NCBI RefSeq assembly: GCF_900232105.1
Contig: NZ_LT934425.1
Location: forward strand, 3,030,001 to 3,062,000
DNA length: 32,000 nt
Reading direction: 5' to 3'
From: Candidatus Kuenenia stuttgartensis
GTDB taxonomy: Bacteria; Planctomycetota; Brocadiia; Brocadiales; Brocadiaceae
A model generated the notes under the pieces. That model ran no database searches. It had not been told where the DNA came from and worked only from the letters and a program-made list of their open reading frames with translations. The translations under genes and the position numbers were made by a program. Of the stretch, positions 17,102 through 24,159 are shown one piece after another. Position 1 is the stretch's first letter; each line of letters starts with the position of its first letter.

Positions 17102-17252
17102 GTAACAGGTTCGTTTTTTTTAAAAGTCGGGGCAAAGCATTTTCTATAAATTGCCATAAATGTGCGCATACTCAAACAGGCAAATGCTTCGCCTCGACAC
17201 TATGCGGCAAAACACCGATATTATTGGAGTTTTTCAAAAAACTAAAGTGTTA
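17102..17252. mobile_element. MITE family 2, copy 1 (diverged; about 151 bp)
   Basis: It aligns along its length with 25162-25300. Shared blocks are gtaaca..tttttt..aaaagt.gggc.aagcatt, aaattg.cataaa.tgtg..cata.c.caaac.ggcaaatgctt and attattgga.tttttcaaaaaactaaagtg.ta. Confidence 0.6.
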
Positions 17253-17412
17253 GTGCGCCAGGCGAAGCTTGTAAAAGCCAGTTGGTTGAAAAGCCAACAT
17301 GAATGTTATTTTTGGTCGCGCCTTAGTGAATCTGTTTGAAGAGCCGTGTGCAGGAATACTGCATGCACGGTTCTATGTGAGGCGGCGGGAGTAATCCTGC
17401 CGTCTACACGAC
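17253..17412 (+). ncRNA. Miniature group II intron-like element: 5' GUGCG, two small hairpins, canonical domain V and domain VI
   Basis: GTGCGCC lies at 17253. There is a GCUU-GUAA-AAGC hairpin at 17267-78 and a gttgg/ccaac hairpin at 17281-98. D5 at 17341-73 is GAGCCGUGUGCAGGAAUACUGCAUGCACGGUUC, with the AGC triad and a 2-nt bulge. D6 at 17377-409 has a GUAA loop and a bulged A at 17406. Confidence 0.55.
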
Positions 17413-17605
17413 CTCCGCCTTAATTTTTTTTTGCCTTATAAAAAACAAATCAAGCAGTGTCCCTCTGTAAAATAGAGGCAATGCAATGCACCGCACTGCA
17501 GCACCGAACAATTTCCCTTCATCTCATGTTCAGAAAAATAACACATCTATTAATGAAGAGATTTAAAGTTGATAATAGATGAAAAATAAGATAGTATTCC
17601 CAAAG

Positions 17606-17683
<78 letters not shown>

Positions 17684-18165
17684 ATAATGACAACTACTTA
17701 CGACTACCATATACTTCCTGAATACTGAAAATTGTATACTTTTTGTATACTTCATTTTTTATTCAGTACTTTATCAAGTATATCAACAGCTTTTATTTTA
17801 TGACTTGGTGAAAGGTGTGCATAAAATGACTAAAACATAAAATTTAGCCACAGGTTGCACTACCACATATAATCTGAAAATGCAAATCAAGCATTCTTTA
17901 CCCACGGCAACGTCAAAGTCACCCTACGAAAGACGCGGATCAAGGATTTGTGCCAAAAGCTCCCGTCAATAAGTGGAGAAGAAGATAAAAAACAATAGAA
18001 TTTTCATATAAATGGGCAAAAATGAGTAAAACAAGCAAAATAGAGCGGGAGTATCCCTGTAGTAATGAAAGAGAGAGAGAAAAAAAATAAAGTGTTTTTT
18101 TTGTTCTCTACATGTTACATGCGAAGCATTTGAAGTGAAAGAAAAGGTCTTGCCGCAAAATTTCT

Positions 18166-18655
18166 GAGCGTCTTTGTTCGCAGCCTATAATGCTGCATTA
18201 CTAAATGGGTGAAAGTCCCATATCGGAAATTGGTTGTTTGACCGATTAGCTATATCTGACATATTGTAAAGGTAACTTGCAATATGAAAGCTCAGAAGTA
18301 AAAGTCCTTGCAAGCGAAGGGCAAACAAGTTTACGGGTCGTACCATAAAGGGAATATTGCAACCTCGTTACGCAGACCACCATAGAACTTGCGAAGTGGC
18401 GGCGAAACAGATACTAAACCACTGCAAAGATGGTGAAAGTTAGTATTACTGATGAAGCAACAACCAAAAGCAATCGGTAAATCTGTCGGGGTATGGATGG
18501 CGACACGTAAACAAAGTAGTGCAGAGTAAATTAGGGAAAATCTTGCTATCAGCCAATACAAGTCCGTACGGCAAAGACCTGTTAGACGAAGTATAATAAG
18601 GTAATGGGAGATAGCGAGCTGGTAGGTTGGAGGCCATTAGCCTCCAACCCCCACT
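18166..18655 (+). mobile_element. 5' ribozyme portion (domain I, probably part of domain II) of a + strand ORF-less group II intron; right boundary approximate
   Basis: It starts GAGCG at 18166, a variant of GUGYG. GGGUGAAAGUCCC lies at 18207-19, as in domain I of the O. iheyensis-type introns I recall. There are many GNRA-capped helices in the + sense (gcGAAGgg, gcGAAGtg, ggcGAAAc, gGTGAAAGt). cuuuguu (18172-78) can pair with aacaaag (~18502-08). Confidence 0.5.
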
Positions 18656-20580
18656 CGTCGCCAGATACTTTGGACAACGTGACAAAGCATCCTTTTTAAA
18701 CCATACGTCTTTCTCGTAGTTAGCGACCCCGACGTGTTGCTCTATAACAGAGAAAAGTCAAACATCATGCTTTAGCACACGCCTTAAGAAATTCTCTTTC
18801 GAATGAGAGTAACCCCATTTTAAAGAATCGGTGAACAGGGAAACGCTTGTTGTCTGTTCTCCATTTTCTTGAGAACTTGAAACATCTCAGTCTCATGCGT
18901 ACCCAACAGTCTAATGAGCGATATACCTTTTGTACATTGCCCAGCCGAAAATAGTTGACATGCCCACGAATTACGGGGTTTAATGTATCAACGATGGCTT
19001 GCAGATTGACGCCCTGTGTACGTCTGGTGATGTCTCTGATGTTGTTCCTTCGGCAGGCTCAGGACAGGCTCTTGAGTTTGTTCAGTGATTTCGTGCTTAT
19101 ACCCTTATACTTGCCCTTGAAATCGTATCCGAGAAACCTGAAACCTCTTTTGAAGTTGGTGAGCTTGGTTTTATCCTCGCTCAGCTTCATTCCAAGTTTC
19201 CCTGCAATGATTTCTTTGACATAGCTGAGGGCGGCTGGGAGTTCATCTTTTGTTTTAGTCATGACAACGAAATCATCGGCGTATCGGACAAACTTATATC
19301 CAGCCTTTTCAAGTTCCTTGTCGATGATGTTACCGATAAGGTTTGCAAGCAAAGGGGAAATTACACCTCCTTGCGGAGTGCCTTTGTTTGTCTCATGCAC
19401 GATGCCGTCCTCCATGACCCCTGCCTTGAGCATGTTCTCAATACTGTTCAAAACCCATCCATCAGCAATTTTCTCACGTAAGGAGTCCATAATAAGCTTA
19501 TGGGGTATGGTGTCATAGAATGCCATTATATCGGCATCAAGGACGCTGGTATACCCTTCCTGCTTATACTGTTCAAGCCGTTTGATAGCATCGTGACAGC
19601 ATCGTGACAGCATCTGTCAGGGCGAAATCCAAAGCTGTTATCTGAGAATCCTTTCTCAAATATTGGCTCTATGATTTGCCTGAACGCCTGCTGTACAATC
19701 CTGTCCTTAACAATGGGAATGCCAAGAGGTCTCTTGTCATGCCTGCCTTTGGGGATGTATACCCGCAGGACAGGCGCAGGGTTGTATATGGCAGTCTTGA
19801 GTTCCTGATGGATACTCATGATATTCACATCAAGATTGGACTCAAATTGCTTAATACTTACCCTGTCAAGACCAGCTTTGCCTTTATTCTTCTTTACGTG
19901 TTTGAAAGCAGCATAAAGGTTTTTCAGACTAAACACCTTGTCTCTTAATGAATGATACTTAAGCATCTCTCGATATATTCCTTTCGATTGATTACGGATA
20001 ATAGATTTGTCAATCGTGTTTCCTGGGTACGGATTCTCCCAAACATAGGCAAAACAAGAGAGGCTCTTGTTACTGTTTACCTACGCAAAAGAGTTTCTTT
20101 TCTCATTGAACGTATTCAATCTGCCACTTTCATCAATTCCACTACGGTTATGCCCCTTTCATTTCCGATTCACACCGGAAACTATTATGAGCAATGCTGA
20201 CGACTTCAAAGATAGACTTGTGAGAGAAGCTTGTCTATCACCATCTCATACAGCTCGGACTTCGGAATTTCCTTATACCTTGCTGTTAGGGAATTTTGCC
20301 CAAGGCGTAAGTCCTCCCCCGGTCATATGGATTACCCCTTTTCCCTTCGTGATGTATGTTCAAACGCATTAACCAGAGATGGTTTTACTTAATCTGTTTA
20401 TCCATCTCCAACAAAGGACATTGTCAGTGCTTCGCTGAGAAATGGCAGTTGGCACGGAATAACACGCCACACTCATACACCCCAAAAGGTCGTCTGTACC
20501 TCGTAACTCCGTCATACCCCTCACGGGTATATGCTATCTTTCTACGCATACGGATTGCTCCATTGTGTGCGCATAGGCAC
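18656..20580 (-). mobile_element. Group II intron on the - strand (domains I-III at ~20580-19967, IEP in domain IV, degenerate 3' end); boundaries approximate
   Basis: The - strand of 19967-20580 is rich in GNRA-capped helices (cagcGAAGcac, cacGAAGgg, ccGAAGtcc, ggaaatGAAAgggg). Its 5' end is near gtgcctAUGCGCAC (20574-20580). An RT/maturase reading frame lies inside. Downstream of the ORF there is only a non-canonical D5-like helix (18698-18743), preceded by a ucuguu linker. Confidence 0.65.
18765..19966 (-). pseudogene. Group II intron reverse transcriptase/maturase (RT domains 0-7 plus X, no endonuclease domain), disrupted
   Basis: N-terminal motifs are GLDRVSIKQFE and RVYIPKGRHDKRPLGIPIVKDRIVQQA. 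They are followed by SFGFRPDRCCHDA, LDADIMAFYDTIPH, GTPQGGVISPLLAN, FVRYADDFVVM, and the X domain IRDITRRTQG...LNPVIRGHVNYFRLGN. The frame is broken by an 11-bp tandem duplication (19588-19609) and by an in-frame TGA (19059-19061). Confidence 0.85.
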
Positions 20581-20923
20581 AAACTTCTCTACGAGGATTA
20601 GGCTCGCAGAGGTGGTATTTTCAACCACTCAGGTATTCCATACTTCAAGGCACTCAGAAGCTCAGATGAGACCGTAGTAGCGTTTGACTTTGAGGGACAA
20701 CATAACCCACAAAAGAGCAAAGGGTCTCTGGACAGGATTTGCTACCAAATAATAGTGAAATCAAATGCCGAAATTAGTAGGCTACAGTAACTAAAAGGCG
20801 GTAGCTATACTCTCCTATAAGATGGAGAAATGCAGGTGAATGTGGGACTTGCACTTAATCCTAAATATCTTTATCGAAGGTTGAGAGCGGATATTCTGTT
20901 TGAAGCCGTACTGGGGAAAACCC
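20581..20923 (+). mobile_element. Continuation of the + strand group II intron: D2/D3-like region, short ORF-less D4, linker and 5' half of domain V
   Basis: A D3-like cucagaagcucagaugagaCCGUAGUAGcg lies at ~20651-20682 (compare CGUAGUAG.CUGAGAAGG in Ll.LtrB D3). The linker auucuguuugaag matches the one before D5 of the mini element. AGCCGUACUGGGGAAAACCC is at 20904-20923. Confidence 0.5.
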
Positions 20924-22307
20924 CATAAGCGCTAACTTGTTTTATTGACAAATTTTATTCATCATGGTATTTTTATATTAATTATCCCGCTAATCACTCT
21001 ATAGGAGGATAAAGCCATGATGAGAGAAGATTGGGATCTTCTAAGAACTTTCTTCCCAAACGATTGGAAAAGTTTAGCCGTTGATACAAATGCTTTAAAA
21101 GGCTTGCGCAAGGATAAATCTGAAGAAAAGCTTCTTCGAACATTATTAATTCATTTAGGATGTGGCTATTCATTGCGTGAAACAGTAGTTCGAGCCAAGC
21201 GTGCTAACTTAGCAGATTTATCCGATGTTGCCTTATTAAAGCGATTAAAAAAGAGCAAAGAATGGCTATATAAATTATGTTTATCTTTATTCCGTGAGCG
21301 TGGCCTCCAAATTAATAAACGGAATAATTTTCATCTTCGCTTATTTGATGCAACAACAGTAAAGGAACCTGGGAAAACAGGAAGTCTTTGGCGCATTCAT
21401 TATAGTATTGAGGTTCCTTCATTATCTTGCGATTTCTTTAAACTTACGGGAACTGAAGGAGAAGGCACAGGAGAATCTTTTCGGCAGTTTCCGATGAAAA
21501 AAGATGATTATATTATAGCTGACAGAGGTTACTGTACTGGCCAAGGAATTCATCATGCAACAAGGAAAGGCGCTTATCTTAGCGTTAGAGTTAATTCGCA
21601 ATCTCTACGGATATTCGGCGAAGAAAAGAAACCCTTTCCTTTATTGAAAGAAATCCAATATTTAAAAAGACCCCTTGCTATAAAATCATGGAACGTTTTT
21701 ATTCCAAACGTTGATAATACTGAATATGTCAAAGGTCGTCTTTGTATAATACGCAAAACAGAAGAAGCCATTAAAATAGCTCATAAAAAACTTAAAAGAC
21801 ATGCAAGCAAAAAGGGCATTGAACTAAAACCGGAGACCCTTATTTATGCCAAGTACGTAATAGTATTCACAACGTTTCCTGAAAATCAATTTACCGCTTT
21901 TGATATCTTAGAATGGTATCGAGTTCGATGGCAAATTGAACTGGTCTTTAAAAGATTTAAACAAATAGCACAATTTGGACACTTACCTAAATACGATGAT
22001 GATAGCTCAAAAGCTTGGCTTTATGGCAAACTATTCGTTGCTCTTTTGACAGAAAAACTAATAGATTTTGCTACGTCTTTTTCCCCCTGGGGATACTTCA
22101 TTGTCAAGCAAGAAGACTAAAAGCAAATGGCGTGAATTTGCTTTTATGCTTAATCAAGTAAAACGGGCTATAGAACCAGCGTTATCATTACAGGAAGTTC
22201 TTAAGTGCTGGAATGACATTGCTTGTTCTTTAGCAGAAAATACAAGAATCCGAAAAACACAGATATCAAAATACTTCGAGCATACCTAAAACAAGTTAGC
22301 GCTTATG
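20924..22307 (+). mobile_element. IS4-family insertion sequence (1384 bp) with 20-bp perfect terminal inverted repeats and an 11-bp target-site duplication
   Basis: IRL cataagcgctaacttgtttt is at 20924-43, and IRR aaaacaagttagcgcttatg ends at 22307. The direct repeat ggggaaaaccc occurs at 20913-23 and 22308-18. Confidence 0.88.
21017..22120 (+). CDS. IS4-family DDE transposase; last ~60 codons continue in another frame (22068-22289)
   Basis: 367-aa ORF with IIADRGY, a D-rich region and RWQIELVFKRFKQ (the Y-R-E-K region). The second ORF (SKWREFAFMLNQVK...) runs to 15 nt before IRR. The frame change falls around the C5/G4 runs at 22083-22092. Confidence 0.85.
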   Translation: MMREDWDLLRTFFPNDWKSLAVDTNALKGLRKDKSEEKLLRTLLIHLGCGYSLRETVVRAKRANLADLSDVALLKRLKKSKEWLYKLCLSLFRERGLQINKRNNFHLRLFDATTVKEPGKTGSLWRIHYSIEVPSLSCDFFKLTGTEGEGTGESFRQFPMKKDDYIIADRGYCTGQGIHHATRKGAYLSVRVNSQSLRIFGEEKKPFPLLKEIQYLKRPLAIKSWNVFIPNVDNTEYVKGRLCIIRKTEEAIKIAHKKLKRHASKKGIELKPETLIYAKYVIVFTTFPENQFTAFDILEWYRVRWQIELVFKRFKQIAQFGHLPKYDDDSSKAWLYGKLFVALLTEKLIDFATSFSPWGYFIVKQED

Positions 22308-22318
22308 GGGGAAAACCC

Positions 22319-22376
22319 ACCGTACGGAATTTTAGAGAGGGAACAGGAAACATACTAAAAAGAGATTGAGTAAATA
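22319..22376 (+). mobile_element. 3' half of domain V plus a degenerate domain VI region of the + strand group II intron; 3' boundary uncertain
   Basis: After removing the IS and one TSD copy, the sequence reads AGCCGUACUGGGGAAAACCCACCGUACGGAAUU. This is a D5-shaped hairpin with UGGG/CCCA upper stem, CC bulge and CCGUAC/GUACGG lower stem. The base reads GAA where the usual GUU partner of AGC would be. I could not draw a convincing D6 stem. Confidence 0.45.
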
Positions 22377-22612
22377 CCTCCGCTTCAGTATGAAAGAGGT
22401 TTCAAACGTTTAGCAATGCGCCTGTTTTCTACTCGGTAATATTTGTTACCTGTGGAAAATGAAAAAAACCAACCACTAGTATAGCGTTTCGGCAAAACAT
22501 CGACATATTGTTTTCCATTATGAACTACGACTGAACAGTCTTAAATCTTGTATTTACAAAGGATTGGATTTTCAATGCCCTCATAGTAATGATGCTATTT
22601 TATGTGTATATT

Positions 22613-22870
22613 TTAATGAAACGTTATACTAGATTCCCCAAAGAAGCCATTGCCCTTTGGGGCATTTTTTGTGCGTGTTTGAGAATTATCTTCACGGGAA
22701 GCGGTATCACGCACATAATGAAGTCCATTTTCTATTGACCAGTGTCCGCGAGAAGACTTAAGAATGGTTTTGGGACTTGCTTTTTGTTGTGTCAGGCTGG
22801 TAATACCGTAAACAATTTCCTCGGTTTTTTTGTCGGTCTTGACTTCTGTAAATATTCCATGAATGCAAAA
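22613..22870 (-). pseudogene. C-terminal remnant of an ISAs1-family-like transposase
   Basis: The - strand frame reads IHGIFTEVKTDKKTEEIVYGITSLTQQKASPKTILKSSRGHWSIENGLHYVRDTASREDNSQTRTKNAPKGNGFF and stops at 22613-15. The Y.I.SL.....L......HWSIEN.LH.V.D..F.ED....R..NAP pattern is the ISAs1-type C-terminus. There is no start codon and no N-terminal part. Confidence 0.6.
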
Positions 22871-23659
22871 TACCTGGCGCGAAAATAAGACTACAAAAAA
22901 TATTTTAAGTACAGATACTACAACACGATATGGTTATAAGCCCATTTTCATCGTTTCAGGGTGTTGCAAATGAAACATGATGACTAGTGACTTATTTTGT
23001 CATTACAAGGGTATCAGCTTGTCATTGCGAGGGTCTTTTCCGAAGCAATCTCATAAACCGTCATAGAGGTCCTTCCATCCTGCATTCATTCATTCCATTA
23101 ATTAATTCTATTTTTTTTAGCCCTTGAGCCACCCTTAATTCGCTTCTCCCGCGATATGGCGTTTCTTACGTCATGAAATATCTCGTAGTATACTGAACTG
23201 CTTCATATTGTTTTTGTCTTTGTGAAACAGGATTATTGAAATAGGAAACGAGATTAAGTTTGTCATGTATTAGTGTGTTATTGTGATGATTATGCATTTG
23301 TGATATTCTTTCTGAATATTGATAATCCTGCCAGATACCTTCTATTTGAAAGGTATTGGCGCTTATGAATTGGTGGATATTTTGAATTATAGCGCACTTA
23401 TAATCACCATTCAAGCATTTTGTCCATCATATTATCACCCTAAAATCCCAAAATTTGTTAAAGTTCCCGAATAGTGCAAAAATGTCCTGATCTTAAAATG
23501 TATTTTGTTGCTACTAACAGGCAAGCAAGTAGACTATTTTGTAATATAGGTTTACAAGGTAAGGGCTAGATAAATTCGTCGCTCTGCGGCCTTCAAACAC
23601 AAAAGACTTTAAGGGGTGTATTATGATGGTTTATGTGTGTAAAAATAGGTGTTTAAGCA

Positions 23660-23898
23660 AAGAGATCGCAATCAGTATGTATGGTAGAGGGCGGGCATTT
23701 GATAACATTTTTACGGAACGTCTTTGGAGGAGTGTGAAGTACGGAGAGGTTTATCTCAAAGAATATCAGGCTTGTAGTGAAGCACGTGAGGGTTTGGAGA
23801 AGTATTTTACATTTTATAATATTAGGAGGTATTACCAATCACTGGAATATAAAATACCGTATGAAGTTCATTTTGGAGTTTCTTCAGTGAGCAAATGA
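23660..23898 (+). pseudogene. C-terminal remnant of an IS3-family transposase (integrase-core tail)
   Basis: ISMYGRGRAFDNIFTERLWRSVKYGEVYLKEYQACSEAREGLEKYFTFYNIRRYYQSLEYKIPYEV matches the conserved IS3 OrfB tail (D..G.A.DN.F.ER.WRSLKYE.VYL..Y......A...I..Y...YN..RPHQ.L.Y.TP.EV). No upstream catalytic region is present. Confidence 0.7.
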
Positions 23899-24159
23899 GG
23901 AAAAGGAGCGGTGGGGCGAAGGAAAATTGCAGAGTGTGCAGAAGGGTAACGGAAGGAGCCTGCTGCACACTGTAGATTGATGAATTAATGCATCTAAATA
24001 TTAATAGTAAATGGTCTTGACAAACCAGTCCACCTTATAAAAAAACTTTGACAGCATAGTGATATAACACTGCAGCCGCAGAAACGGCTTGTTTCCAAAC
24101 TAATCGCTGGTACGCATGGAAATAAGTGCTAATGTACTAATGATAATTTAAGTAAGATG

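Follow-up and report, generated by a model that had tools for sequence, protein, structure and literature searches.

How does a group II intron come to be reduced to its two ends, and is what remains still of any use? The question is raised by a 160-nt group II intron-like element on the plus strand (17253-17412) of the window analysed here, a stretch of 32,000 nt (G000:C1:3030001-3062000) from a 4.4-Mb single-contig genome. The element consists of a GUGCG start, two small hairpins, domain V (D5) and domain VI (D6), and occupies an intergenic position between a MITE and a tRNA gene. A preliminary description of the sequence offered three explanations, namely, an internal-deletion derivative, a non-autonomous element mobilised in trans, or D5 and D6 co-opted for another role. 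[quoted passage not shown] Like truncated bacterial introns (PMC4424553), the element studied here is a fragment lying amid mobile DNAs, outside housekeeping genes, and lacks an IEP and a complete ribozyme. Unlike the usual 5' or 3' truncations, it keeps both termini and has lost the interior, with an apparent insertion sequence (IS) stub at the junction.

Anatomy of the 160-nt element

The group II 5' end, the two hairpins, one of them with a GUAA loop, D5, D6, the bulged A17406 and the ...GAC 3' end, all of which had been recognized in the preliminary description, proved to be present and correctly placed. The sequence at 17253 is GTGCGCC, and the first 50 nt of the element (17253-17302), which by homology and fold are equivalent to intron nt 1-50, comprise the GUGCG end and two D1-proximal hairpins, predicted to fold as GCUU-GUAA-AAGC and as a 7-bp stem with a GAAA loop. 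Beyond a 19-nt junction filler (17303-17321), nt 17322-17339 are colinear with all copies of the intron family described below and represent intron nt 558-575, which comprise the last part of D4 and the linker leading to D5. D5 (17340-17374) carries the AGC triad at 17342-17344, a 2-nt AU bulge and an apical pentaloop GAAUA, and D6 (17377-17409) has a GUAA loop and the bulged A at 17406, the seventh base from the 3' end at 17412, a boundary that is common to 10 family copies. The search with RF00029 yielded a match to 17339-17412 that spans the full model (positions 1-77 of 77) and exceeds the gathering score (43.7 versus 40 bits; E = 1.4e-5). The minimum-energy fold of 17253-17440 contains a 14-pair D5 with the 2-nt bulge and the pentaloop, as well as a D6 in which A17406 is the single bulged base, and the fold of the whole element has a z-score of -4.65 relative to shuffled sequences. 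The core features at 17253-17412 are real and go beyond a chance pattern.

The previously noted near-complete absence of domains I-IV is borne out by alignment to the complete 648-nt intron described below, which shows that intron nt 51-557, approximately 507 nt covering most of D1 and D2-D4, are missing. The element contains no ORF and hence no intron-encoded RT/maturase in D4. Overall, among the features of group II introns, D5, D6 with a branch-point-like A, a 3' end of the form AY and a 5' end conforming to GUGYG are present, whereas a complete D1 and D2-D4 are not. Group III introns of Euglena chloroplasts are approximately 90-120 nt long, lack D5 and are spliced out of essential genes, where they occur in large numbers. 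The 160-nt element resembles them in being a very small group II derivative with recognizable terminal motifs and D6, but differs in that it possesses D5, lies in intergenic mobile DNA and is unique, and it falls outside group III.

The preservation of D5 and D6, highlighted in the preliminary description, is indeed high: in an alignment of eight family 3' ends, all 28 of the 28 pairs of the element are standard ones, including 14 of 14 in D5. Furthermore, private changes in D6 maintain the pairing, with an A-U pair converted to U-A at the second pair and a G-U pair to A-U at another. By contrast, two relic copies in the genome of a same-genus relative, G001, have substitutions in the AGC region of D5. 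In what is a shallow alignment (8 sequences, 93% mean identity), covariation in D5/D6 was no better than in shuffles, between 72 and 264 of 500 shuffles attaining the observed values, according to the measure used. The state of D5/D6 accords with descent from a parent lineage that had stayed functional almost up to the deletion. The D6 changes could mean continued selection, but are equally expected if they were made in a working parent and the deletion is recent; given that other relic copies show a decayed D5, a recent deletion from a functional lineage explains the intact D5/D6 just as well.

These observations bear on the possibility that D5 and D6 are kept by selection, as a trans-acting domain V serving introns with a damaged D5, as a protein-binding decoy, or as the structured 3' end or terminator of an upstream transcript. 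The perfect pairing and the structure-preserving, copy-specific changes speak for such a role, as do the run of nine U residues that starts 17 nt past D6 and the presence of an IS within the D5 of a neighbouring intron-like element. However, the arrangement exists in one copy and recurs in none of the 60 related genomes searched, no terminator-like site was called on the plus strand at D6, this genome contains no cognate D1-D3, and the filler resembles accidental IS debris. Taken together, we found nothing that points to co-option and regard this explanation as very improbable; its narrower form, in which D5-D6 together with the 50 nt from the intron 5' end are selected as a small structured RNA, either a trans-acting domain V or an RT/maturase-binding decoy, appears slightly less probable again. 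Were it true, the compensatory changes in D6 would be a trace of selection in a genome crowded with damaged introns.

The parent intron family and its target site

In the 4.4-Mb genome, the 160-mer occurs once, and no other piece of its intron family was detected. D5 alone (element nt 80-120) resembles another, unrelated intron family of this genome (83-90% identity), the flanks and D6 of which differ, and the one further D1D4-6-type match in the genome (4356529-4356785) corresponds to an unrelated element. We then searched for the 160-mer in 40 related genomes, followed by all 44 genomes of the family, 17 further genomes of the order and metagenome contigs. In the genomes of the family, the 160-mer was never found in one piece; instead, its two ends were found separately, and no second copy of the 160-nt form was recovered from 60 related genomes. 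In G002, a member of the same genus, they lie 508 nt apart on contig C46 and delimit a 648-nt ORF-less group II intron, which is matched by the Rfam models D1D4-6 (114 bits) and RF00029 (48 bits). In global alignments, nt 1-50 of the element match nt 1-50 of this intron at 49 of 50 positions and nt 70-160 are 91% identical to intron nt 558-648, whereas intron nt 51-557 (~507 nt) are replaced by 19 unrelated bases. The D1D4-6 match on the 648-nt intron covers nt 37-282, of which only nt 37-50 survive in the 160-nt element. The second copy in G002 (contig C20, L041) is identical to the element over the entire 5' part (50/50). The homology of nt 1-50 to genuine intron 5' ends rules out a plain 5'-truncated 3' fragment preceded by a chance GUGCG.

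Longer forms of the intron also exist. G047, which represents another genus, carries a 1927-nt copy with a broken RT/maturase ORF in D4, and a metagenome contig (L063) contains a 1.93-kb copy with an intact RT/maturase ORF of 457 aa (358 bits with TIGR04416, for which the cut-off is 300, plus RVT_1 and GIIM matches), in which no endonuclease-domain match was detected. This metagenome copy is the only one in which an intact IEP of the family was seen. Partial copies include one spanning nt 1-461, others in which nt 1-190 are joined to ORF sequence, and 3' pieces. In the nt 1-190 form, represented by L044 (G001:C5) and L060 (metagenome), the 5' part is fused directly to the RT ORF region, approximately nt 671-853 of the 1.93-kb form; it is another internal-deletion derivative of the same intron family. 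Altogether, the intron family has representatives in four or more genera of the bacterial family and in metagenomes (L043, L041, L044, L056 and L063). It looks undescribed and represents a modest addition to the known group II introns. In genome G013 (L033), approximately 160 nt downstream of an intron 3' end, we also observed a match to the c-di-GMP-I-GGC riboswitch model RF03167 (1754-1860, plus strand; 47.3 bits, below the gathering score of 59).

The intron family displays a whole series of decay products, of which the 160-nt element is the most extreme. The four forms, namely, the autonomous 1.93-kb intron, the ORF-less 648-nt intron, the fragments and the 160-nt stub, offer a natural series for intron decay in bacteria. 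A parallel is provided by ORF-less introns served in trans, as in Thermosynechococcus elongatus (PMC2882425), which likewise derive by internal deletion from an ORF-bearing family; the 648-nt form in G002 is of this type. However, such introns retain D1-D6 and are present in several copies, whereas the 160-nt element retains approximately 50 nt of D1 along with D5/D6, is single and has no family partner in its genome.

As previously noted, a MITE copy abuts the 5' side of the element, and it ends exactly at 17252. Comparison with the other copies in the genome shows that this MITE (17102-17252), with 26-nt terminal inverted repeats at 17103-17128 and 17227-17252, constitutes the 5' exon and the apparent homing site, and that its last base, a C, has been displaced by the intron to 17413, where it forms the first base of the 3' exon, as indicated by empty MITE copies and by the 3' flanks of the introns. 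There are approximately 80 MITE copies in the genome for which the match reaches the 17252 end; the consensus end is ...CAAAAAACTAAAGTGTTA, usually followed by C, and most empty copies read GTGTTA C. All family copies with a readable 5' flank are inserted after ...AAAACTAAAGTGTTA, which in most of them is the end of an abutting MITE. Five readable 5' flanks, in the window, G002:C46, G002:C20, G001:C5 and G047:C2, end with AAAACTAA(A/C)(G/T)TGTTA, and on three contigs of G006, approximately 21 nt of the MITE end pass directly into the intron 5' end within one match. On the opposite side, C follows the intron 3' end in 9 of 10 copies. Given that family copies sit after AAAACTAAAGTGTTA, mostly at a MITE end, the contact between the element and the MITE reflects homing rather than chance. 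In G002:C20, the motif is present without the rest of the MITE, and therefore the motif, not the MITE as such, is the target.

We infer that retrohoming of the family takes place at AAAACTAAAGTGTTA^C, one base in from the end of the MITE terminal repeat. Since the copies always follow AAAACTAAAGTGTTA, which belongs to the terminal inverted repeat of this abundant MITE, any end of the MITE could serve as a homing site, and homing to MITE ends would explain the intron pieces that abut MITEs in these genomes. A candidate EBS1, UAAUACU, at nt 346-352 of the 648-nt intron can pair with AGUGUUA, the candidate IBS1, and falls within the part deleted from the 160-nt element; for EBS2, no convincing assignment could be made in the 648-nt intron. 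The use of repeated or mobile targets is shared with other introns, such as class C introns at terminators and attC sites and introns in IS, but, unlike in class C, the target of the parent family is apparently read by pairing with the approximately 7-nt candidate IBS1 at the MITE end and not as a terminator stem-loop. Recognition of the intron family and of its MITE-end target may help the annotation of this clade.

The preliminary description also reported a CCTCCGCYT motif after the 3' ends of both the 160-nt element and the neighbouring plus-strand intron. The motif does occur at both places, but at 22377-85 it (CCTCCGCTT) is internal to the neighbouring element, the ends of which were placed at approximately 18177 and 22437 by comparison with empty sites. 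The argument for a common 3' exon fails, because C17413 belongs to the MITE and the motif at 22377-85 lies inside the neighbour. Of the linker said to be shared with the neighbour at 20890-20903, an exact 11-mer, TCTGTTTGAAG, is confirmed, whereas the BLAST match to that element is marginal (E = 0.11); the shared 11-mer may reflect distant relatedness or chance.

Origin of the deletion and fate of the element

The filler holds a clue to how the interior was lost. The sequence ATGTTATTTTTGGTCGCGCC (17303-17322) matches, at 18 of 20 positions, the exact terminal 20 bases of six copies of an approximately 1.9-kb repeat, and the flanks of the six copies diverge right past the matched terminus. The repeat encodes a DDE transposase of the ISAzo13 type (PF07592, 361 bits). 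When 20-mers were shuffled, 3 of 120 reached 18/20 anywhere in the genome, and a match of this quality located exactly at an IS terminus is rarer still. The filler has no counterpart in the introns of relatives, and a matching ISAzo13-family IS was not found at the relatives' loci. The filler thus probably represents the terminal ~20 nt left behind by an inserted ISAzo13-family IS, with the caveat that the stub diverges by 10% over 20 bases, compared to approximately 2% among the IS copies, while the 5' 50 nt of the element are 100% identical to a G002 copy. The 1.9-kb ISAzo13-family IS is represented by G000:C1:2131548-2133466 (L057) and approximately six other copies; this IS has a second ORF, of 279 aa, without a Pfam match.

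The match of the filler to an IS terminus at 18/20 suggests an IS insertion followed by a deletion at the DNA level. In the sequence of events that we infer, one intron copy would have entered the MITE at 17252/17413, after which an ISAzo13-family IS probably inserted just upstream of the pre-D5 linker CTTAGTGAATC. A DNA-level deletion would then have removed intron nt 51-557 together with all of the IS except for its last ~20 nt, leaving the first 50 nt of the intron, the IS stub, the linker, D5 and D6. The deletion was possibly part of a larger rearrangement. Synteny with G002, the closest genome (94% identity), breaks between 17152 and 17447, and, given that the break falls in the interval holding the junction, the deletion may be one face of such a rearrangement. 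Comparison of orthologous loci shows synteny to be broken in all three same-genus genomes (G001-G003), and in none of them does the DUF3786 gene adjoin tRNA-Pro.

The same synteny break leaves room for a variant in which the ends stem from two different intron copies and were brought together by a more extensive rearrangement rather than by a deletion inside a single copy; recombination at copies of an IS or of the intron could, for instance, have placed the DUF3786 block beside the tRNA-Pro block. The absence of this gene order from G001-G003 speaks for such an event, and so does the difference in identity to the G002 copies between the 5' 50 nt (98-100%) and the 3' 91 nt (91-92%). However, this difference rests on few sites (0-1 of 50 versus 8 of 91), both ends have the same orientation and are in the correct order, and the 3' end is followed by the terminal C of the MITE, which is what a single insertion into one MITE would produce. 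We consider a two-copy origin of this kind, including the recombination scenario, to be unlikely, albeit worth keeping in mind; its product would still be a dead relic.

A further proposal, of a miniature, non-autonomous retroelement that an intron-encoded protein mobilises in trans, would account for the retention of both termini (GUGCG ... AC) and for the occupation of the family's proper target site. Yet, the latter is explained by the insertion of the parent, reverse splicing requires the exon-binding sites of D1, which are deleted here, and the element exists in one copy in a genome with no IEP-bearing or full-length member of the family. The junction was not found in the 44 family genomes, in the 17 order genomes or in metagenome contigs with the 5' end of the family: one metagenome scan revealed no 160-nt form among the contigs carrying this end, and an exact search of metagenome contigs for the deletion junction gave no match, although records close to this genome may be hidden from such a search. 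Mobilisation in trans, one of the explanations put forward initially, thus appears hardly credible.

The remaining explanation offered at the outset, derivation by internal deletion, is supported by the searches of the genome and its relatives, which recovered a single copy that aligns with both ends of a full-length intron and lacks the interior. Hence, the 160-nt element is very probably a bacterial group II intron relic that has lost its interior and its function. Neither splicing nor reverse splicing of a group II intron is possible without D1, which provides the receptors for D5 as well as the exon-binding sites. The element, having lost D1-D4 in a genome that offers no cognate copy, is expected to be inert, capable of neither reaction. 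It would thus be one more decayed intron copy, an ordinary outcome for bacterial mobile introns and no novel class of miniature element, and drops off the list of candidate new RNA elements.

Neighbouring mobile DNA

Downstream of the 160-nt element, at a distance of 195 nt, lies the tRNA-Pro(GGG) gene (17607-17683), as already recorded in the preliminary description. Farther downstream, at 18177-22437 (plus strand), is an ORF-less intron-like element of approximately 850 nt excluding nested inserts, which matches Rfam D1D4-4 with 71.5 bits, has an atypical 5' end (TTCGCAG...) and contains a D5-shaped hairpin that is not scored by RF00029. Its ends were set against approximately 8 empty sites, which lie within an IS remnant (17903-18176 and 22628-22876), and in the window a 2040-bp RT element and an IS4-type IS are inserted into it; a second copy is located at G000:C1:4319476-4322201 (L028, minus strand). 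The inserted 2040-bp element (18617-20656, minus strand) encodes a split reverse transcriptase (RVT_1) and is present in approximately 10 copies in the genome, with 98.6-99.7% identity; at E <= 5, neither RF00029 nor D1D4 gave a match to it, an unexpected result in a group II intron this large. In the sister genome G002, the homologue of the window from 24042 onward begins within approximately 60 nt after tRNA-Pro, and the 6.3 kb of nested introns, IS and MITEs at 17700-24040 are therefore lineage-specific insertions.
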